Source: an uncultured bacterium (GTDB lineage Bacteria; Chlamydiota; Chlamydiia; Chlamydiales; SM23-39). From it: a stretch of 44,350 nucleotides of DNA. Shown here one piece after another: positions 1 to 39,492 of the stretch (the stretch's first letter is position 1; each line of letters opens with the position of its first letter). The stretch covers positions 1 to 44,350 of the forward strand of contig CAYVDU010000001.1 of assembly GCA_964450765.1 (NCBI GenBank), read 5' to 3'. A model generated the notes under the pieces. The model did no database searches and was not told where the DNA came from. It worked only from the letters and a program-made list of their open reading frames with translations. A program made the position numbers and the translations under genes.

Positions 1-1415
1 TATGATCGGTCGGACCGAAATACAGGAGGAAGGATGGTAGGAGTGGAAGAGCGAGAGAGAATCCGAAGGGCTTATTTTATAGAGAAGAAGACGATCCGGC
101 GGATCGCGCGGGAATATCACCATAGTTCGCCGGGTGGTGCGGGAGGCCATCAAGGAGAGCACGGTTCCGGTTTACCGGCGCAAGCAGCCTGTCATCCTGC
201 CGGTGATCGGGCCGTCTGTTCCGATGATCGAGCAGTGGCTTCTGGAAGATGAGAGCCGGCCAGAGAAGCAGCGGCACACCGCGCATCGTATTTTTACCCG
301 GCTGACGGAGGAGCAGGGCTTTACCGGATGTGAGTCGAACGTAAGGCGATATGTGCGGCTGAGGCGGCCGAGGCTTGATTCCGTGTTCACTCCGATCGGG
401 CACGCCATTGGGGAGGAGACGCAGGTTGATTTTGGAGAGGCCCAGGTCTTACTTGCGGGGCGGCTGACGACGGTTCATCTGTTTTGTTTTCAACTCTGTT
501 ATTCGGGGCGCCGGTTTGTCCGAGCCTACCGGACCGAGCGGCAGGAGGCCTTCTTCGAGGGGTTGGCCCGCGCGTTGCGCGCAGTCGGCAGGGTTCCGAA
601 GCGGATCACCTTCGATAACCCCAAGACCCTGGTCAAAAAAGTCTTTCGGGGGCATCTGCGGGAAGAGCACCCCAATTTTATTGCGTTTCGGTCGCACTAT
701 CTGTTCGAAGGGAACTTCTGCAACCCTGGCAAGGGGAACGAGAAAGGGCACGTTGAGGGGCTGGTGGGGTGTGTGCCAGAAGAAACGCCCTGGTCCCGAT
801 CCCGGAGGTGGTGGCCACGCTCTCTGAACTGAATTGTATTCTAGAGCAGTGGGGGCAGAGCGATCAGGCCCGGATGTACAAGGCAGAGCGCGTTTTGGAT
901 CGCTTCGAGGCAGAGAGAGTGCATCTGAAGCCGCTGCCTGCGTTCGACTATCCCTGCTGCCGAAGAGAAGAGTCTGCCGTAGGGAGCTACTCGGAAGTGA
1001 GGGTGGGGACCACGGTGCCGGTGGCGTATGCCCATCGGAGCGTCAGCGTTCTGGCCTATCCTGAGAGAGTCGAAGTCCTCTGTCAAGGGGAGGTGATCGC
1101 CCGCCACGGGCCAGAACCAGGATATCCTCGACCCCTACCATTACATTCCGCTGCTTGCCTGTACCCGTGAGGGTGAGAGACGCCCTGCGCTGCTTCACCA
1201 TGGCAAGGCGTTTAAGGGATGGAAACTCCCCGAGATCTTCGAGCGAGTCCGATGCCGTCTGCAAGAAAGAAGCATCCGAGGGGACCGGGGGAATATATCC
1301 GGATCCTCCGCCTTCACGAGCGGCACACGACCGAATGAACGGAGAATCGTACCGCTTCAAGAGCAGCCAGAAACGGATGAAAGAGGATTACCAGGCACAA
1401 GCAACACCCTTATAA
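1..1415 (+). mobile_element. Degraded IS21-family insertion sequence (left-end leader plus istA remnant; no istB helper gene follows)
   Basis: IstA-like segments are spread over all three plus-strand frames. No IstB-like ATPase ORF lies downstream. It sits at the distal end of the EPS cluster. Confidence 0.75.
34..1415 (+). pseudogene. istA: IS21-family transposase IstA, broken by at least 3-4 frameshifts
   Basis: N-terminal HTH piece MVGVEERERIRRAYFIEKKTIRRIAREY (34..). DDE core piece ...GEETQVDFGEAQV...YSGRRFVRAY...FDNPKTLV...NPGKGNEKGHVEGLVG (134..832). Continuation in other frames: 769..1170 PLPAFDYPCC...VRVGTTVPVAYAH; then QDILDPYHYIPLL and GEYIRILRLHE read in further frames. Confidence 0.8.
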
Positions 1416-31890: not shown

Positions 31891-32841
31891 TTACGAGTGA
31901 GGACCCGCTCCAACAGTGCAGGATTGATATTCCGTTGCCTTTCCCAAAAGAGGGGCCTGGGTCATTATTTTTTCTTTCAAGGTGCGGAGAGGGGCAAACC
32001 GGAAGTCTTGAAGCAGTTGCCGGAGACGTGGTTCGGTCTTATTAAGATTGACATAATGTCGGAAACGGGACCGAAAACTTCCGTTAATCCGGGGTTGGAT
32101 CGGGTCAATCTCCCATGGGTGGAGGTAAACGTTGGCTGGAATCCCCTCATGATCATTGAGGCGACGGATCGCCCATTGACTATACCGATAGGGGAAGAGA
32201 CGGAAATAGCCTCCCCCTGCGGCCGGTACATTCCACCCCATGATCCGAACCGTTGATAAAGGAAATTCCAGGAGTCGGGCACCATTCGAAAGCGAATGAA
32301 AATAAGGATAACGACGTGCGTTCGGAATGCCATAAAGATCGTGATGGATTGGGAAGATACTCGAATCATATTCGAATCCAATTTTCTGGAGGAAATCGAG
32401 ACACCAGAGGGTTTCACGGATAATCGAATAGCTCGGGGCTCGGTAGCCAATCACTGGGATACCGCTGAGATTTTCTAAAATTTCTTTTGATCGCTGTGTA
32501 TCCTCCTTGAACTCCTCTCGGCTCATTCGATAAATAAGGCGGTGCCGATAGCCGTGAGAGGCGATTTCATGCCCCTCTTTTTGGATGGCGAGCACCAGTT
32601 GAGGATATTTCTCTGCGATCCAGCCGAGAATGAAAAAAGTCGCTTTCACTTGGTAGAAATTTAGAATCTCGATGATTCGCCATGTATTGGCAACCACCCT
32701 ACTCTCATGACGACTCCAATCTTCAAAGCGGATTTGCGGCTCAAAAGCGGCTACTTGATAATAATCTTCAACATCAATCGTCAACGCATTGACAACATCC
32801 AAGGGACCTGGGAGGAGCCGTCTTTCAGGCGCCGGTTTCAA
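31891..32841 (-). CDS. Polysaccharide deacetylase, PEP-CTERM-locus subfamily
   Basis: 316 aa. NALTIDVEDYYQV..., KATFFILGWIAEKYP and IASHGYRH are typical of the deacetylase subfamily seen in exosortase loci. Confidence 0.8.
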   Translation of the reverse strand: MKPAPERRLLPGPLDVVNALTIDVEDYYQVAAFEPQIRFEDWSRHESRVVANTWRIIEILNFYQVKATFFILGWIAEKYPQLVLAIQKEGHEIASHGYRHRLIYRMSREEFKEDTQRSKEILENLSGIPVIGYRAPSYSIIRETLWCLDFLQKIGFEYDSSIFPIHHDLYGIPNARRYPYFHSLSNGARLLEFPLSTVRIMGWNVPAAGGGYFRLFPYRYSQWAIRRLNDHEGIPANVYLHPWEIDPIQPRINGSFRSRFRHYVNLNKTEPRLRQLLQDFRFAPLRTLKEKIMTQAPLLGKATEYQSCTVGAGPHS

Positions 32842-34175
32842 CGGGCTCCCTCCCGGCTAAAAACCACCTTAATGGTTTCGATCACGATTGTCAGATCAAA
32901 AACAGGAGAAAGATGTTTAATATAATAGAGGTCGAATTGAAGTTTTTCGAGGGCATCCTCTTCTGTCGCCCCGTAAGAATACTTTACCTGGGCCCATCCG
33001 GTTAAACCCGGTTTTACGCTGAAACGGAGATCATAATAAGGAATTTTTTTCCGAAGTTGGTCCACAAAAAGTGGTCGTTCCGGTCGGGGTCCCACGAAGC
33101 TCATCTCCCCTTTTAAAACATTGATCATCTGGGGGATTTCATCGAGACGAAGCATCCGCATAATCCTGCCCAGTCGTGTCACGCGAGGGTCATTTTGACT
33201 CGCCCAGACTGGACCGGTTCCACGTTCTGCGTCTTGATGCATCGACCTGAATTTGATCACCATGAAGAGTTTCCCATTTTCTCCAACTCGTTCTTGTCGA
33301 TAGAAAATCGGCCCTCGTGAGTCAAGTTTGATCAATACGCTTAGGGCCAGAAAAACAGGTGATAAAAGGATCAGTCCGGTTGAAGCAAGAAGAAGGTCAA
33401 GAAGATGCTTGGCAAGCCTCATCATGGTTAGTCGGTTGAATCCTTCGCTGAAAATCAAACTACTGGGCCTCAGAAATTTGACAAGGATTTTTCCGGAGAT
33501 CTTCTCGTAGAAGGAGATCCCCTCGACCACCTCTACGCCCTGCACGCGAAGCCGGAGGAGGGCTTCGACGGGAAGCTGCCTTCTTCGATCATCCAGTGCG
33601 ATCACTACCTTACGAATATCATGTTCTTTAAGGATGTTCTCCAGTTTTACCCATTCCTCGCCAAGCTTATCTGGAATATCGGGATTCCATTTAAACTGTG
33701 TCGGAAGGTATCCGAGGCCTTGCTGGTGGGTTAAGGTTTCCACAATAAGCGTCCCAAGCGGACCAGATCCGATGATCAAAATAGGCGTATCCCAATGTTG
33801 TGTAGAGACCAGGGTCTGGTATCCCAGGCGTAGTCCGATGAGCACAACGGGAAAAAGAGCCAAGTAATTCCAAAAGTACCGCGATGCTACAAATTCAGAA
33901 GGTACCAGCAAATAGATCGCAAACAAGATCCCCGCCGCCAGGACGATTGCCCGTAAATGTTTGATCCAAAATTCCTTGAGAGAAAAGCGAGGGAAAGACG
34001 GCCGGAGCTCATTATAGTAGAGAGAAATCTGCACAACCAATGGGACAAGAAGGAGCCCATCCCATCTGATCCCCGTTTTAGTCCACCAGATCAAAAACAG
34101 GAAGATCAGCATGTTTTCAAAAATAAAATAAATGGTATCCCGAATGGGAAAATATCGATTAAAGATTCTGATCAT
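32838..34175 (-). CDS. Priming polyprenyl-phosphate glycosyl-1-phosphate transferase (bacterial sugar transferase, EpsB/WbaP-like)
   Basis: 445 aa. N-terminal TM helices and a Rossmann-like linker. The C-terminal Bac_transf domain carries LLSPVFLALSVLIKLDSRGPIFYRQERVG, DEIPQMINVLKGEMSFVGPRPERP and KPGLTGWAQV. Confidence 0.9.
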   Translation of the reverse strand: MIRIFNRYFPIRDTIYFIFENMLIFLFLIWWTKTGIRWDGLLLVPLVVQISLYYNELRPSFPRFSLKEFWIKHLRAIVLAAGILFAIYLLVPSEFVASRYFWNYLALFPVVLIGLRLGYQTLVSTQHWDTPILIIGSGPLGTLIVETLTHQQGLGYLPTQFKWNPDIPDKLGEEWVKLENILKEHDIRKVVIALDDRRRQLPVEALLRLRVQGVEVVEGISFYEKISGKILVKFLRPSSLIFSEGFNRLTMMRLAKHLLDLLLASTGLILLSPVFLALSVLIKLDSRGPIFYRQERVGENGKLFMVIKFRSMHQDAERGTGPVWASQNDPRVTRLGRIMRMLRLDEIPQMINVLKGEMSFVGPRPERPLFVDQLRKKIPYYDLRFSVKPGLTGWAQVKYSYGATEEDALEKLQFDLYYIKHLSPVFDLTIVIETIKVVFSREGAR

Positions 34176-34210: not shown

Positions 34211-34915
34211 TCAGTAGCCATACTCGTAATACTTCGAAGGCCAATCCATTTTGGCCCGGTTGAGAACGCTCCCAATTACTTTTTCAGGGCCGAGTGATTT
34301 TATTGCCTGGGAAAGGGCTTGCTGAGGAACCTCCCCCGCACCCACAACGAGGATCACCCCGTCAACCGCTTGGGAGATGAGACTCATATCGAAGAGAGGA
34401 AGAATCGGCGGCCCATCGACCCAAATGTAATCGAACCAGCTTCGCACCTCATTCAAGAGCTCTGGAACTTTCCCCGATGTCCAAACATTGTCCCCTCTTT
34501 TAAGGGAGCGTCCCATTGGAAGAACAGCCACATTCTCGACCGGACCTTTCTTCAATGCATTGCCAAGTTGTAGTTTTCCATCCACTACTTCGACCAGGCC
34601 GGACTCGTTTGCCATCTTGAAGCGTTTTGCCAGTGCCGGGTGGTTGTAGTCACCGTCGATGATGAGACATCTCTTACCAAAGTCTCTTCCGCATACAACC
34701 GCCAGATTTGCGGCCGTGGTCGTTTTGCCTTCTCCTTTGATCGAGCTCGTGAAGGCGATGATCTTCTTTTGTGGTGTCCGGCAGATCTGGTCAACCTTCG
34801 TGAACAGCATCCTGTAGCGGTCGGAGGAAACCGAGTCTCTCCGGGAGAGTGTGACCAGTTCATCTCCTCCCTGAAAGTCAGGAATGATTCGCTTCGTCAT
34901 CTGTTTCCCCATCAT
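34211..34915 (-). CDS. BY-kinase-type tyrosine autokinase (cytoplasmic ATPase subunit)
   Basis: 234 aa. Walker A SSIKGEGKTTTAANLA, A' LIIDGDYNHP, B IWVDGPPILP, and a C-terminal Tyr cluster SKYYEYGY. Alternative start at 34900 (GGGGA upstream). Overlaps the 3' end of the Wzz-like gene. Confidence 0.85.
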   Translation of the reverse strand: MMGKQMTKRIIPDFQGGDELVTLSRRDSVSSDRYRMLFTKVDQICRTPQKKIIAFTSSIKGEGKTTTAANLAVVCGRDFGKRCLIIDGDYNHPALAKRFKMANESGLVEVVDGKLQLGNALKKGPVENVAVLPMGRSLKRGDNVWTSGKVPELLNEVRSWFDYIWVDGPPILPLFDMSLISQAVDGVILVVGAGEVPQQALSQAIKSLGPEKVIGSVLNRAKMDWPSKYYEYGY

Positions 34916-36512
34916 GGACCATCGTCCTACTTATTTTTTTTTCGGAAAATCGCCACTCTTCATCAAAGTCCGGAATAGAGGCGAGTACTGGTACTGAGGT
35001 AATTCGTTCGACCTCATCCGGTTTCCGGATCGACCCGTCCAGGCGCTCTCTTACAAAAGCCAGTGCAAGGCCGACCCCCAGTCCTCCGACCAAGCCCCCA
35101 AGACCTATCTTCATCGGATCTGGTTTGAACGGTTTTTCTGGAAGGTTGGCCGGATCAAGAATTCGGAACTGCTCCCCCTTCTGTTTCTTTTCGAGGTTCT
35201 CTGAAATTTTAGCATTGAGTTTTTTGTCGTGAAGGCTTTGGTAATTTTTCTTTGTATTCTCATAATCGCGTTCTAGAACGGCTAATTCCTGCTCGCGTGA
35301 GGGGGCGGTTTCTACACGACGCTCATAGACCTGAATTTGCCGTTGAAGGTCTCGTTCCCGTTCGCTCAACCGCTTTGATTCTGCTTCCACTTCTTGAATT
35401 TGACTTTTCAGATCGGACAGACGCCTCTGTTCCAGGTCTAAATCGAGGGGAGGTCTCGCAAGCGCATCCCCCCTGTGATCGGGAGCAGCCAACCCGCCCC
35501 CTTCTGGTGGGGGAGGCGCTTCAGTTATTTGTCCTTCGACAAGCCGACTCTCCAGTTTTTCAATTTCCTGTCGAAGCATCACCACATCTGGGTAGTTTTC
35601 TTTATATTCCCCCAAGAGATTTGCAAGATCTCTTTTTCGCTCGTTCAACAACAGCATGAGAGCCGAACGGGAGCGCGACTCTTGGGAGTGATTCGTCAGG
35701 GGCTGCCCTGGAGTGGTTCCGATTGGTCCCCTCCCCGTCAGTGTTATTTCATCCATTTGTTGTTGTGTCATTTGAATGGTCTTTTCGAATATTGTTTTCC
35801 GGTCTTGGGCCGCTCGTTTCGCCAATTGGGTCCCGAGCAACTCCGACTGCATCCGATCGAGCGAGCGGAGGTTCGCCTCCAATTGTTGTGGCAGTTCGCC
35901 CATATAAGCCCGCTTGAATTGGCCGATCTGCGCCTCCTGACGTTCCAAGGTTTCTTTAAGAGTGGTCAGTTCGTTATCCAAAAACTCGGTCGTCCCCTCG
36001 ACCATTTGCTCGCGAATTTTCAGGTTTTCCTCGATAAAGAGGGAGGCCAGTTCGTTTGTCACATTCATTACGGTTAAGGGGTTTTTCCCCTGGAAAGAAA
36101 GCGAAAACGCCTCGACGTTATTGTTCCTCGCCGTGGTTGTTTTTACTTCGATGTTATTCCGCATTAAGCCGACGACTTCTTCACTCGTCATTTCTTTTGA
36201 TCCGTCGGAATAAAGGCCGAACTTCCGAATGATTTTTTCGAGAAGGGAACGGCTCATGATCTGTTGTTGTATCGTTGAGAGACGTCCTTCAACCGTCCCC
36301 GTCACAGCCGATTTGACATATTCTTCCGGAACTGTTTGGGCTTCAACCAGAATAAGAGTGGTTGACCTGTAAGTCTTCGGGAGCTTCAAAATGAGTGCAA
36401 TTGAAACCAGAATTCCAATGACGAGTGGGATGATGATCCAAAACTTTCGGCGCCATGCCATCGTCAAATATTCAAAGAAAAGTGTCTGGAACTCTCTATT
36501 CTCTTGGTCCAT
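34878..36512 (-). CDS. Polysaccharide chain-length determinant (Wzz/GumC-like, PEP-CTERM-locus type)
   Basis: 544 aa. N-terminal TM (FWIIIPLVIGILVSIALIL), a long coiled-coil periplasmic region with a Pro/Gly-rich insert (EAPPPPEGGG), and a C-terminal TM (GLGGLVGGLGVGLALAF). Confidence 0.8.
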   Translation of the reverse strand: MDQENREFQTLFFEYLTMAWRRKFWIIIPLVIGILVSIALILKLPKTYRSTTLILVEAQTVPEEYVKSAVTGTVEGRLSTIQQQIMSRSLLEKIIRKFGLYSDGSKEMTSEEVVGLMRNNIEVKTTTARNNNVEAFSLSFQGKNPLTVMNVTNELASLFIEENLKIREQMVEGTTEFLDNELTTLKETLERQEAQIGQFKRAYMGELPQQLEANLRSLDRMQSELLGTQLAKRAAQDRKTIFEKTIQMTQQQMDEITLTGRGPIGTTPGQPLTNHSQESRSRSALMLLLNERKRDLANLLGEYKENYPDVVMLRQEIEKLESRLVEGQITEAPPPPEGGGLAAPDHRGDALARPPLDLDLEQRRLSDLKSQIQEVEAESKRLSERERDLQRQIQVYERRVETAPSREQELAVLERDYENTKKNYQSLHDKKLNAKISENLEKKQKGEQFRILDPANLPEKPFKPDPMKIGLGGLVGGLGVGLALAFVRERLDGSIRKPDEVERITSVPVLASIPDFDEEWRFSEKKISRTMVHDGETDDEANHS

Positions 36513-36558
36513 TTCCCCTGGTGTCCTCTCTTAAATCTTCTCGGTGGTATGTCTAAGA

Positions 36559-36588
36559 ATTGTAAAAATCTCGAATCCGGTTTGTAAA
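36559..36588 (-). promoter_or_regulatory. Candidate sigma70-type promoter for the EPS operon (TTTACA-N18-TACAAT)
   Basis: The minus strand reads TTTACA (36583..36588), an 18-nt spacer, then TACAAT (36559..36564), about 45 nt upstream of the ATG at 36512. Pattern match only. Confidence 0.3.
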
Positions 36589-37015
36589 ACAGGAGCTTGC
36601 GGTGATCCGGAGCCATCCCTGGGAAAACTTCATGATATATAGTAAAATGTATGTGATCACTTCCTAGAGATCAATCCCCTCAAAAGGGGGGGGCATCATC
36701 CCTCTTTAAAAATTTATAATACATTGAAATTAAATAATACTTAATCTACGTATTATTTTTAAATAGGGACCTTGTAATGATTAGTTTCTGATTATGTTAA
36801 GTATAATTATATAGTATATTGTGCCTAATATTAAGTTCTCATTTTATCATAATCTCATTTAAGTTGGAGTTCAGAGGTGGAGGATAGTAGGACCTTTGAT
36901 TTTTTGATAGAAACATTCAGGAAACTGACAGCTTTTTATGTAGAGAGCCTCAGTAATAACACTTGTCTTTGGGTTAGCCCCCTATGAAGTGTCTCAGTAA
37001 TGGTTTTACAGTCCA

Positions 37016-37082
37016 TTCATCCTGAGCGTGTCGAACCAAGAACGGATTAATATCGTTCATACCTCGACACGCTCAGGATGAA
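37016..37082. repeat. Perfect 19-bp inverted repeat with a 29-nt spacer (REP/MITE-like palindromic element)
   Basis: ttcatcctgagcgtgtcga (37016..37034) against tcgacacgctcaggatgaa (37064..37082). There is an inner 5-bp stem gaacg/cgttc (37040..37044 / 37054..37058) and outer gtgtctc/gagacac (36989..36995 / 37106..37112). Confidence 0.9.
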
Positions 37083-37206
37083 CGGGGTATGTTAAAGAAG
37101 TATTGGAGACACGACACTAACTATGGTGGGGGGCGAAAGGATTGGGATTGTTTTGAAGTCAGCAGTATAAGTAGAAAAACCTACGGATAAGTAACATTAT
37201 ATATAC

Positions 37207-39492
37207 TCATAGTCCCTGAAGTGTTTTTTCCGCTTCATCCGAGCCCGGGAATATCTTGCTTAACCTTAATGACTCAGCGAGTTCTCTTTTGGCATCCTCT
37301 TTCTGTCCGTTTTTATAATATGCCATGCCGAGGTGGTATCGAACGACGGGGTTCTGAGAAAGCTTGGCGGCGCTCTCTTCCAAAAGGGAGATCGCTTTCA
37401 GATAAACATTCTTCTTATAGTAGATCCAGCCGAGCGTATCCGAAATTCCCGGATCATCGGGATGTTTTTCCTTCGCCATCTGCGCCAGGTCTAACGCACG
37501 GTCGATATTTCCGCCATGTTCAGCATAAAGCCATGCCAGGTTATTTGCCGCAGGGGTAAATGTTGAGTCTATTTCAAGTGCCTTTTCATATTCCTTTTGC
37601 GCTTCATCATGTTTCTGTTGCCCGTCGTAAATCACCCCCCGTAACATATGAATTTGGGGCGCATTTGGTTTGACTTTCAGGGCTTCATCCAGTCGATGTA
37701 AGGCCTGATCGAATTTTTTCTCATGGGCATATAGATTTCCAAGATCGATATATGAAACCAGGTCATTCGGATTCACTTCGATTCCTTTTTGAAGGGCCTC
37801 TTCGGCTTTCTTGAGGTCCCTTTTCGTAATATAGAGTTTGGCCAAAAGAGAATACAAAGCCGAATTTTGAGGCGATACTTCTATCTGCGTGATCACCCGT
37901 TTGAGTGCCTTCTCAAGGTCTTTTTTGGAGAGGTCGATTGAGACGATTCGTGCCAATGCCTCAACATGATTGGGATAAAGAGAGAGCGCTTTTTCAAAGA
38001 GGGGAACCGCCTCCTGTTCCTTTTTCTGGCTGTATCGAATCAGGCCCAATTTGTAGTAACCGATCGGGTTATCCGGAGCCGACTTCATGACCTGTTGATA
38101 AACCGCCTCCGCCTTTTTAATCTCCCCTTTCAAGAATGACGCGTCTCCCAAAATCACCTGCGCCGTCAGATTCCCCGGGTCCAATGCGGTCACCCGTTCC
38201 GCTTCAGAAGCGGCAAGGTCAAATGAACGCGACTGGAGATAAATGTCGGCCAGAACAAGCCGGGCCCGGAAGTCATTCGGATTCTGCTTGACCGCCTCTA
38301 AAAACGCCCCCTTCGCTTGTTGAGGATGATGATCGGCGAGCAAGGCAAGCCCAAGGTAATATTGCCCTGAAAAGAGGGACGGTTCGGACTGGATCGCCTT
38401 CCGCAGAAATGTGACCGCTTCGCCGCTCTTGTTCTCGGTAAGGAGGAACCGTCCTTTTAGCAAAAGTCCCTCCGGGTTTCCCTCGTTTTTGCCAAGGATT
38501 TCTTCAATCATCCCCTTCGCTTCTTCTTTCTTTCCCTGACTCAGGTAGAAATCCGCCAGCTTTTTCCAGACAAAAATCGATTCCGGCTTTGCCTCTTTTG
38601 CTTGTCGATAACTCTTTTCCGCTTCTTCCATTTTTCGAAGGCCGGCATAAAAATCGCCGAGTGTGATCAACGGCTCAGGGTCTTTCGGGTCGAGACGGGT
38701 CGCTTCGATCAACCGCATCTCCGCTTCTGCGGTCCGTTTTTCAATGATGTAAAAATTCGCCAATCCGAAATAGAGAAATTTGTTCTTGGGCGCGATCGAG
38801 AGCCCTTTTTGGTAGTAAGATTCCGCTTCTTTCGGTTGACGGGTATAATGATAAAACCGAGCCAGATGGATGTGACTTTCGACCGATTGCGGATCGATGG
38901 CGAGGGCCTTTTGAAGGAGGGCCTCTGCGGCAGCGGGATCCTTCTTCATTAGGGAGAGGCCGGCGAATTCGTAATAGGTCGGCAGACGCTTCGGGTCAAG
39001 GTCGAGCATCTCTTGATAAATCTTTCCAGCCTCATCGAGACGGCCTTCCCGCTGGTCGATTCGTGCCTTGATGGAGAGCGCACCCAGGTTATCCGGTGCT
39101 TTTTCCAACACCCGGTCGGCTTTTTCCCATGCACTCTTGAGGTCGTTGGCCGATAAGTAAAGCATGGCAAGGTCGACTTGGGCATCAATCAGTTCGGGTC
39201 TTTGCTCCGTCACCTCGCTCAAGAGTTTAAACCCGTTCCGAAGATTCGCCGTACCCCCGAGTTTTAGATAGATCCGTCCAAGTTGGTATTTTGCATCGGA
39301 ATGATTCGGGTCGGCCTGCAAGACGTTTTTAAACTCGATCATTGCCTCTGGATATTTCATTTGAGAAACATATTCCATCCCCCTCCGAAAATGCTTCTCT
39401 TTCTTGGCCTCGGTCGAAGTGCAAGAGGATAACGCTGCAAGAAAGAACAGGGAGAAGACCACCAAGAGGATTGTTTTTAACTTCATGTTCAC
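37207..39492 (-). CDS. prsT: PEP-CTERM-system TPR-repeat lipoprotein
   Basis: 761 aa. Lipoprotein signal MNMKLKTILLVVFSLFFLAALSSC (lipobox LSSC), followed by TPR repeats throughout (many A..Y..AL..DP motifs). It sits at the head of an exosortase locus. Confidence 0.8.
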   Translation of the reverse strand: MNMKLKTILLVVFSLFFLAALSSCTSTEAKKEKHFRRGMEYVSQMKYPEAMIEFKNVLQADPNHSDAKYQLGRIYLKLGGTANLRNGFKLLSEVTEQRPELIDAQVDLAMLYLSANDLKSAWEKADRVLEKAPDNLGALSIKARIDQREGRLDEAGKIYQEMLDLDPKRLPTYYEFAGLSLMKKDPAAAEALLQKALAIDPQSVESHIHLARFYHYTRQPKEAESYYQKGLSIAPKNKFLYFGLANFYIIEKRTAEAEMRLIEATRLDPKDPEPLITLGDFYAGLRKMEEAEKSYRQAKEAKPESIFVWKKLADFYLSQGKKEEAKGMIEEILGKNEGNPEGLLLKGRFLLTENKSGEAVTFLRKAIQSEPSLFSGQYYLGLALLADHHPQQAKGAFLEAVKQNPNDFRARLVLADIYLQSRSFDLAASEAERVTALDPGNLTAQVILGDASFLKGEIKKAEAVYQQVMKSAPDNPIGYYKLGLIRYSQKKEQEAVPLFEKALSLYPNHVEALARIVSIDLSKKDLEKALKRVITQIEVSPQNSALYSLLAKLYITKRDLKKAEEALQKGIEVNPNDLVSYIDLGNLYAHEKKFDQALHRLDEALKVKPNAPQIHMLRGVIYDGQQKHDEAQKEYEKALEIDSTFTPAANNLAWLYAEHGGNIDRALDLAQMAKEKHPDDPGISDTLGWIYYKKNVYLKAISLLEESAAKLSQNPVVRYHLGMAYYKNGQKEDAKRELAESLRLSKIFPGSDEAEKTLQGL

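Follow-up and report, generated by a model that had tools for sequence, protein, structure and literature searches.

A gap upstream of a chain-length determinant gene as the probable scar of an export-gene rearrangement in an exosortase-type exopolysaccharide locus

The window analysed here, the 44,350 nucleotides of contig CAYVDU010000001.1 (hereafter C1) of a metagenome-assembled genome (MAG; hereafter the bin), carries a co-directional cluster of exopolysaccharide (EPS) and exosortase genes. Between the gene of a PrsT-like lipoprotein and that of a chain-length determinant (ChnLen) this cluster is interrupted by 694 bp of non-coding DNA, at positions 36513-37206. An earlier note, made from the sequence alone, had singled out this gap as the only large one of the cluster, and our count agrees: there are 31 gaps in total and the other 30 measure at most 198 bp. 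No credible open reading frame (ORF), and none above 50 aa, lies inside the gap; several of 20-50 aa do occur, all in unconvincing start contexts. The features of the gap and its two neighbours are listed in the direction of transcription; C140 is a second contig of the same bin.

37207-39492, minus strand: gene of the PrsT-like TPR lipoprotein, the upstream neighbour, whose stop codon forms the right edge of the gap.
37013-37085, unstranded: imperfect palindrome resembling repetitive extragenic palindromic (REP) elements; it has arms of 32 nt, a perfect core of 19 nt and a position 122-194 nt past the prsT stop codon.
36688-36876, unstranded: AT-rich core, 25% GC overall with a minimum of 17.5%, directly upstream of the promoter-like module.
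36669-36693, minus strand: 25-nt module made of a GC palindrome and a putative -35 box, conserved in relatives and on C140.
36646-36651, minus strand: putative -10 box TACATT, 17 nt after the -35 box.
36513-36645, minus strand: leader of the ChnLen operon, in which a purine-rich region for ribosome binding lies immediately ahead of the ATG (36512).
36559-36588, minus strand: second promoter-like site, TTTACA-18 nt-TACAAT, with 10/12 matches in a consensus scan.
34878-36512, minus strand: ChnLen gene, which opens the EPS/exosortase W operon downstream.

The PrsT-like product scored 390.6 bits against TIGR02917, above the cut-off of 312.2, and is 67% identical to its Manganitrophus orthologue. 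ChnLen reached 274.6 bits against TIGR03007, which is ~4 bits below the cut-off of 278.85 but by far its best-scoring family. The composition of the gap is uneven. Positions 36721-36840 have 21.7% GC, in line with a previous hand count of ~22%, and the lowest 120-nt window, 17.5%, is at 36703; in a scan of the 44-kb contig, 36688-36876 was the only region with 120-nt windows at or below 25% GC. For comparison, the local flanks have ~41-50% GC, the contig 47.1% and the bin 40.8%. The gap as a whole has 37%, and the extreme composition is confined to the core. The bin holds 195 comparably AT-rich segments, every one on a contig other than C1.

We then compared the gene order of the window with that of 13 related loci, retrieved through ChnLen scans of genome and metagenome collections. 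The informative orders are given below with the identity of ChnLen to that of the window; OPX stands for the Wza-like polysaccharide export lipoprotein, PilZ for a small c-di-GMP-sensor protein, TyrKin for the tyrosine autokinase and EpsB_2 for the priming transferase.

L007, L009 and L013/L016 (63-65%): PrsT, LuxR/GerE-type regulator (~385 aa), PilZ (~100 aa), OPX (207-230 aa), ChnLen, TyrKin, EpsB_2.
L014 (58%): LuxR, PilZ, PilZ, OPX, ChnLen, TyrKin, EpsB_2, with no PrsT match in the 6-kb flank.
L008 and L017 (65% and 42%): shorter contigs in which OPX immediately precedes ChnLen.
L011, L018 and L019, Nitrospira-type (38-49%): the 1.5 kb upstream of ChnLen contain PilZ and either one OPX gene or two.
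L012, Nitrospira-type (37%): OPX within 1.5 kb upstream of ChnLen, with no PilZ match.

An OPX gene lies upstream of ChnLen in every related locus with enough upstream flank, so the rule stated in the earlier note, that an export lipoprotein gene sits directly ahead of the chain-length determinant, holds for this clade. In the closest loci, which belong to Manganitrophaceae-like Nitrospirota, the LuxR, PilZ and OPX genes occupy exactly the interval that is a gap in our window, and the window lacks all three. Relatives sharing the order of the window with a similarly short intergenic region did not turn up in this comparison. Profile searches of the window also bore out the reported absence of an OPX gene, of an ExeA-like ATPase (TIGR03015) and of the TIGR03016 barrel. 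Permissive tblastn searches of the gap with the relatives' LuxR, PilZ and OPX proteins as queries returned noise only, and nhmmer searches with profiles built from three stretches of the relatives, namely the PrsT-LuxR spacer, the LuxR gene and the spacer between LuxR and the motif, detected no homology in it. An apparent MAFFT alignment of the gap with the relatives was discarded as meaningless, since the nhmmer profiles found nothing. Similarly, the region just upstream of the ChnLen start shows no similarity to that of the relatives.

The comparison brought out a second difference, further down the cluster. The relatives carry, between EpsB_2 and the deacetylase gene, a conserved gene of ~410-440 aa with a weak match to TIGR03016 (47 bits) and 67-71% identity among themselves. 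No homologue of it was found in the window or in the bin, and at 31891-34175 the EpsB_2 and deacetylase genes of the window overlap by 4 nt at the corresponding place. This gene is, by prediction, a second outer-membrane-type component missing from the locus of the window.

The search for a Wza-like export gene in the rest of the bin, advised in the earlier note, yielded two. Matches to Poly_export (PF02563) occur only on C140, a contig of 4.4 kb, and none on C1; the two genes score 157 and 142 bits, under the TIGR03027 cut-off of 180. The order on C140 is a frameshifted DDE transposase remnant, PilZ, OPX, OPX, an NAD-dependent epimerase and a 234-aa ORF that looks like a sugar transferase. 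The PilZ protein is 58-62% and both OPX proteins are 59-62% identical to the products of the relatives' genes between PrsT and ChnLen. These values are near the 65-67% of the flanking ChnLen and PrsT, and the similarity is therefore orthologue-like. The six best-matching sequencing runs, from four studies, are identical for C1 and C140, which fits their origin from one organism. The transposase remnant (C140, locus L001, positions 3-417) is GC-rich (60%) and IS4/IS5-like, and it ends ~45 nt upstream of a copy of the promoter-like module that precedes PilZ-OPX-OPX. Searches of the bin, which is 90% complete and probably not the genome of the owner of C1, revealed neither a LuxR orthologue nor a TIGR03015 ATPase nor a TIGR03016 barrel.

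That module also links the two contigs. When the gap was compared with the bin by blastn, the single significant match outside itself was a 25-nt stretch of C140 that precedes PilZ and, with respect to gene direction, is oriented like the copy in the gap. Sites with up to five mismatches number two in the whole bin, the gap copy and C140:465-489. Read in the gene direction, the module consists of a run of eight C (36693-36686), TTTT, GAGGGG (to 36676), a single A and the -35 hexamer TTGATC (36674-36669). It also occurs in L007, L008, L009 and L013/L016, at the syntenic position between LuxR and PilZ, while L014 has four copies, including one before each PilZ gene and one before OPX. All 10 copies, from 7 loci, read TTGATn followed by TAnAnT after 17 nt (18 nt on C140). 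A 4.6-Mb Manganitrophus genome contains one perfect site and none for the reversed control.

With -35 and -10 hexamers 17 nt apart, in the gene direction and upstream of the start codon, the module is promoter-like: a putative sigma-70-type pair whose -35 box adjoins a GC palindrome of 16 bp. Transcription would start near 36639 and give a leader of ~127 nt. The G8 tract (36686-36693) and the plausible sigma-70 promoter reported earlier as separate features are both real and prove to be parts of this one conserved element, the tract being the left arm of its palindrome. Run X1 shows strain variants in the spacer (36662, 36665 and 36667) and in the length of the C run (G8 to G9 on the plus strand), and none in the -35 or -10 hexamer. 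Both copies of this organism, on C1 and C140, carry the same T-to-C change, by which one symmetric position of the palindrome is lost. No compensatory changes were found among the ten copies, which suggests a protein-binding site kept as sequence rather than an RNA hairpin. The second promoter-like site (36559-36588) lies within the leader; it is not conserved in the relatives, and the evidence for it is weak.

As to the ownership of these contigs, the bin comprises 1.69 Mb in 318 contigs, with 40.8% GC. C1 has 47.1% GC as compared with 40.5 +/- 1.8% elsewhere in the bin, 3.7 standard deviations above the mean, and is its second-worst tetranucleotide outlier. Of 30 genomes taxonomically related to the bin, not one yielded a ChnLen gene. 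The ABC-F gene at the right end of C1 has only paralogues of 30-33% identity in the genus of the bin, while genes 61-76% identical to it are found in Nitrospira and Candidatus Manganitrophus genomes. Given this composition, the absence of ChnLen from the relatives of the bin and the affinity of the ABC-F gene, C1 is most likely mis-binned Nitrospirota DNA, a large island being less likely. The largest contig of this MAG is thus probably foreign to the binned organism, and statements on what the rest of the genome lacks call for caution. Contigs C140, C10, C6 and C3 are also GC-high, and C6 carries a second, distant ChnLen homologue (C6:1311-1754, locus L006; 34% identity over the C-terminal part). 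Putative mobile-element debris is also present at the edge of C1: an ORF at window positions 134-832, in the GC-rich left end, has a weak match to an integrase core (rve).

We favour, with a probability of roughly 0.7, the reading that the gap is the scar of a rearrangement in which the regulator, the leader, PilZ and OPX went while the promoter module was kept, and that it now acts as the spacer separating two transcription units, prsT and the ChnLen-led operon. The footprint of a replaced export gene, one of the possibilities raised in the earlier note, is the one that gained support, from the position of OPX in the relatives, the 59-62% identity of the C140 OPX proteins and the outcome of the gene-order comparison. 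That the export genes were ancestrally present in the interval is suggested by the order shared by all sampled relatives with flank. Under this reading, the starting point would have been the order of the nearest relatives, with a LuxR/GerE regulator, the promoter module, a structured leader of ~160 nt (described below), PilZ and the OPX lipoprotein, then ChnLen. The lineage of the window would then have lost the regulator, the leader, PilZ and OPX from the interval and retained the module, which now stands ~160 nt upstream of ChnLen, while PilZ and two OPX genes would have come to lie at a second locus, that of C140, behind another copy of the module. The transposase remnant beside the C140 copy suggests how the move may have happened. 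Polymer length control and outer-membrane export would then still be co-regulated through a shared promoter/operator and no longer co-transcribed. The direction of the rearrangement is, likewise, something that we infer.

Several points weigh against this reading. No breakpoint can be defined on either side of the gap, and the origin of the AT-rich core is not explained by it. C1 and C140 are known only as separate contigs. Beyond the 25-nt core and the -10 box, the upstream regions of C1 and C140 are not significantly alike, and therefore a duplication event cannot be shown. Both the activity of the promoter and its start site are read from sequence. Finally, C1 probably comes from an organism other than the one represented by the bin, and the apparent absence of LuxR and the barrel gene from the bin therefore means little.

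The absence of pseudogene remnants and of definable breakpoints would also suit the opposite history, in which the adjacency of PrsT and ChnLen is the older state, the LuxR-PilZ-OPX block was inserted in the Manganitrophaceae-like relatives and the gap is an ordinary long promoter region. The four copies of the module in L014, where it behaves as a portable unit, agree with such a history. However, in the more distant Nitrospira-type loci (37-49% ChnLen identity) OPX lies upstream of ChnLen too, accompanied by PilZ in all but one of these four, and the 13-locus sample leans to the presence of OPX as the shared state. Moreover, the C140 genes resemble their counterparts at the syntenic position in the relatives no less closely than the flanking genes resemble theirs. 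We consider this history unlikely.

The AT-rich core invites a different explanation, namely that a nucleoid-associated or xenogeneic-silencing protein binds it and represses the EPS operon until counter-silencing sets in. A core of 17-25% GC on a contig of 47% GC, directly upstream of the promoter, speaks for this, and promoter-like hexamer pairs are enriched (8 vs 2.6 expected), although such enrichment is expected in any AT-rich DNA. The small motifs listed in the earlier note are present: TTAAGT at 36797, 36831 and 36859, the 9-bp inverted repeat 36732-36740/36750-36758, and the palindrome tataattata, which lies at 36802-36811, one base off the start of 36803 given before. Nevertheless, three copies of some hexamer appear in 75% of the dinucleotide shuffles of the core; allowing for its post-hoc choice, the triple TTAAGT is therefore not significant. 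The curvature check showed no 10-11-bp phasing of AA/TT, the power at 9.5-11.5 bp being below the shuffle mean (P = 0.95). H-NS/Lsr2 homologues (PF00816, PF11774) were found neither in the bin nor in the complete Manganitrophus genome nor in a Nitrospira genome, a search that left MvaT and Rok outside its scope. The core is conserved in no relative, either. The nucleoid-protein-silenced hub proposed before is in consequence without support, and we hold silencing to be improbable. Neither the core nor 36877-37012 has homology to the relatives' spacers or LuxR by nhmmer, an Rfam family or a terminator-like site. In our reading of a rearrangement scar, the core is a lineage-specific spacer or filler, which may lend extra upstream promoter strength.

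The palindromic element mentioned in the earlier note is real and is a REP-like repeat. The folding energy of 37013-37085 is -57.7 kcal/mol (z = -10 vs shuffles). The palindrome and its arm are single-copy in the bin, whereas in nine Manganitrophaceae genomes the 18-nt arm is matched 6-38 times per genome, vs 0-1 times for a control, and many of these matches are closely spaced inverted pairs with hairpin folds. The REP-like assignment is based on this dispersal, and membership in a Manganitrophaceae repeat family supports the Nitrospirota origin of C1. The palindrome has no U-tract and probably forms the 3'-end hairpin of the prsT transcript. The 15-mer 37142-37156 has a counterpart in a longer repeat, with its own hairpin, on C2, C22 and C74; with only 14-15 nt in common we treated it as chance.

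So stable a hairpin, together with ~500 bp of gap that has no assigned function and the ORFs of 20-50 aa, might point to an unannotated small RNA (sRNA) or small protein. The best Rfam 15 match in the gap, to AaHKsRNA41, has an E-value of 2e-5 and reaches 32 bits against a gathering score of 97, so that no family was found at the gathering threshold; we rejected this match, which comes from the palindrome alone, itself a dispersed REP-like repeat. A scan for intrinsic terminators found none in the gap, nothing outside the promoter module is conserved, and the small ORFs have no convincing start context. The sRNA suggested in the earlier note thus received no positive support, and a hidden small RNA or small protein seems to us a poor prospect.

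That the gap is an artefact of assembly or binning, with unrelated pieces joined where the export gene should be, can hardly be right: Logan unitigs of the biofilter runs do break within the AT-rich core and C1 is a compositional outlier in its bin, but an independent contig spans the gap and unitigs tile it, and mis-binning bears on the ownership of C1 while leaving the join itself unaffected. The stretch is present in biofilter and drinking-water metagenomes from several studies; no RNA run containing it came up in the searches of sequencing runs. The independent contig (X2; 1895 nt, from a drinking-water metagenome of a different study) covers 36089-37900 at ~99% identity, with 12 substitutions and 1 indel, and the fragmented unitigs of other runs tile the gap with no conflict; on these two grounds we take the join as real. 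All 12 substitutions relative to the X2 contig fall within ~400 nt (37009-37411), in the palindrome and the 3' end of prsT, with 0 in the 920 nt to the left and 0 in the 490 nt to the right; this cluster resembles a short recombination tract between strains.

The relatives' leader deserves a description of its own. In the Manganitrophaceae-like loci, each PilZ and each OPX gene has in front of it a conserved element of ~160 nt, at the following positions.

L007: 2756-2920 and 3331-3493.
L008: 79-244 and 644-806.
L009: 4548-4701 and 5125-5266.
L013: 4553-4715 and 5132-5291.
L014: 3658-3819, 4425-4589 and 5063-5227.

The element has an invariant 12-bp hairpin, a second hairpin, self-complementary but of varying sequence from copy to copy, and a long-range AAGGAGGG/CCCUCCUU helix. 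A covariance model detected two copies ~570 nt apart in six of the nine Manganitrophaceae genomes, one copy in two and none in the remaining one. The same model found no copy in the window, on C140, in the rest of the bin or in the Nitrospira-type loci, and the ChnLen leader of the window is accordingly without it. The relatives' leaders have no Rfam match at threshold. RNAalifold gave few compensatory pairs, in an uncurated alignment of very similar sequences in which MAFFT mis-registers one helix. We regard the element as a candidate for a new cis-regulatory RNA, lost by this lineage. One may go further and suppose that the GC palindrome and -35 module form the operator of a dedicated regulator, perhaps the relatives' LuxR-type protein, and that the leader is an undescribed riboswitch-like RNA controlling PilZ and OPX; this double proposal is tentative and, as a whole, rather doubtful. 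If it were true, the module would tie slime export to slime polymerisation, and by dividing the operon, retaining the operator in front of each half and dispensing with the RNA, this lineage would have run a natural experiment on how EPS export control is rewired.

On the preferred reading, an exosortase-type slime locus can lose the export genes from their canonical position yet keep them elsewhere under the same type of promoter. As the export genes are then relocated, calling such loci incomplete or non-functional from one contig can mislead. The work also defines a short, testable cis-element (palindrome, -35 and -10) for the control of EPS export in relatives of manganese oxidisers, which live in drinking-water biofilters, where biofilm formation matters in practice. 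Among the papers searched, we found none linking Manganitrophus with exopolysaccharide.

The Manganitrophus/Manganitrophaceae loci (L007, L008, L009, L013 and L014) and the window agree in the succession of PrsT, ChnLen, TyrKin, EpsB_2 and the deacetylase, with identities of 58-76%, and both have the 25-nt module of palindrome and -35 box and the -10 box. The LuxR, PilZ and OPX genes between PrsT and ChnLen, the ~160-nt leader and the ~410-aa TIGR03016-like gene are present in those loci and absent from the window. In common with REP elements, the palindrome downstream of prsT is an extragenic imperfect palindrome after a stop codon whose arm is dispersed at 6-38 copies per genome in related genomes; it differs in being single-copy in the bin and in its long arms (32 nt), like two units tail to tail. 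The promoter-like module, for its part, resembles LuxR-type class II activator sites, in which lux-box-like palindromes overlap the -35 box: it likewise has a 16-bp GC palindrome against the -35, and the relatives have a GerE-type regulator gene immediately upstream of it. It differs from them in that the site is putative, no LuxR orthologue was found in the bin and one symmetric position is lost in both copies.

Finally, the cluster can be set beside the PEP-CTERM/exosortase EPS loci with PrsK-PrsR-PrsT regulation (TIGR02917, TIGR03007, TIGR03027 and related families; Haft et al., 2006, PMC1569441). Like these, the window has a PrsT-type TPR lipoprotein, ChnLen, a tyrosine autokinase and an EpsB_2 priming transferase in one co-directional cluster, along with a TIGR03006 deacetylase, a FemAB-like protein and an exosortase, and its relatives have OPX just upstream of the chain-length determinant. 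In contrast to them, the cluster is without OPX, the TIGR03015 ATPase and the TIGR03016 barrel, and its exosortase is XrtW (NF038142; 573 bits, cut-off 425) and not XrtA (193 bits, below the cut-off of 208). Control by sigma-54 and PrsR is unsupported, although the earlier note had proposed to look for PrsR-like regulators: no -24/-12 site (TGGCAC-N5-TTGCW, up to 3 mismatches) occurs within 36513-37206, and no PrsR scores above cut-off in the bin, the best match to that family having 323 bits vs 503. The lack of a sigma-54-like site in the gap sets the window apart from the proteobacterial PEP-CTERM regulon (Haft et al., 2006, PMC1569441). Its locus appears to be controlled, instead, through a sigma-70-like promoter with a GC palindrome. 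This promoter module is previously undescribed but ordinary-looking, and we see in the gap a case of operon rearrangement in a locus of a familiar type rather than a novel class of element.

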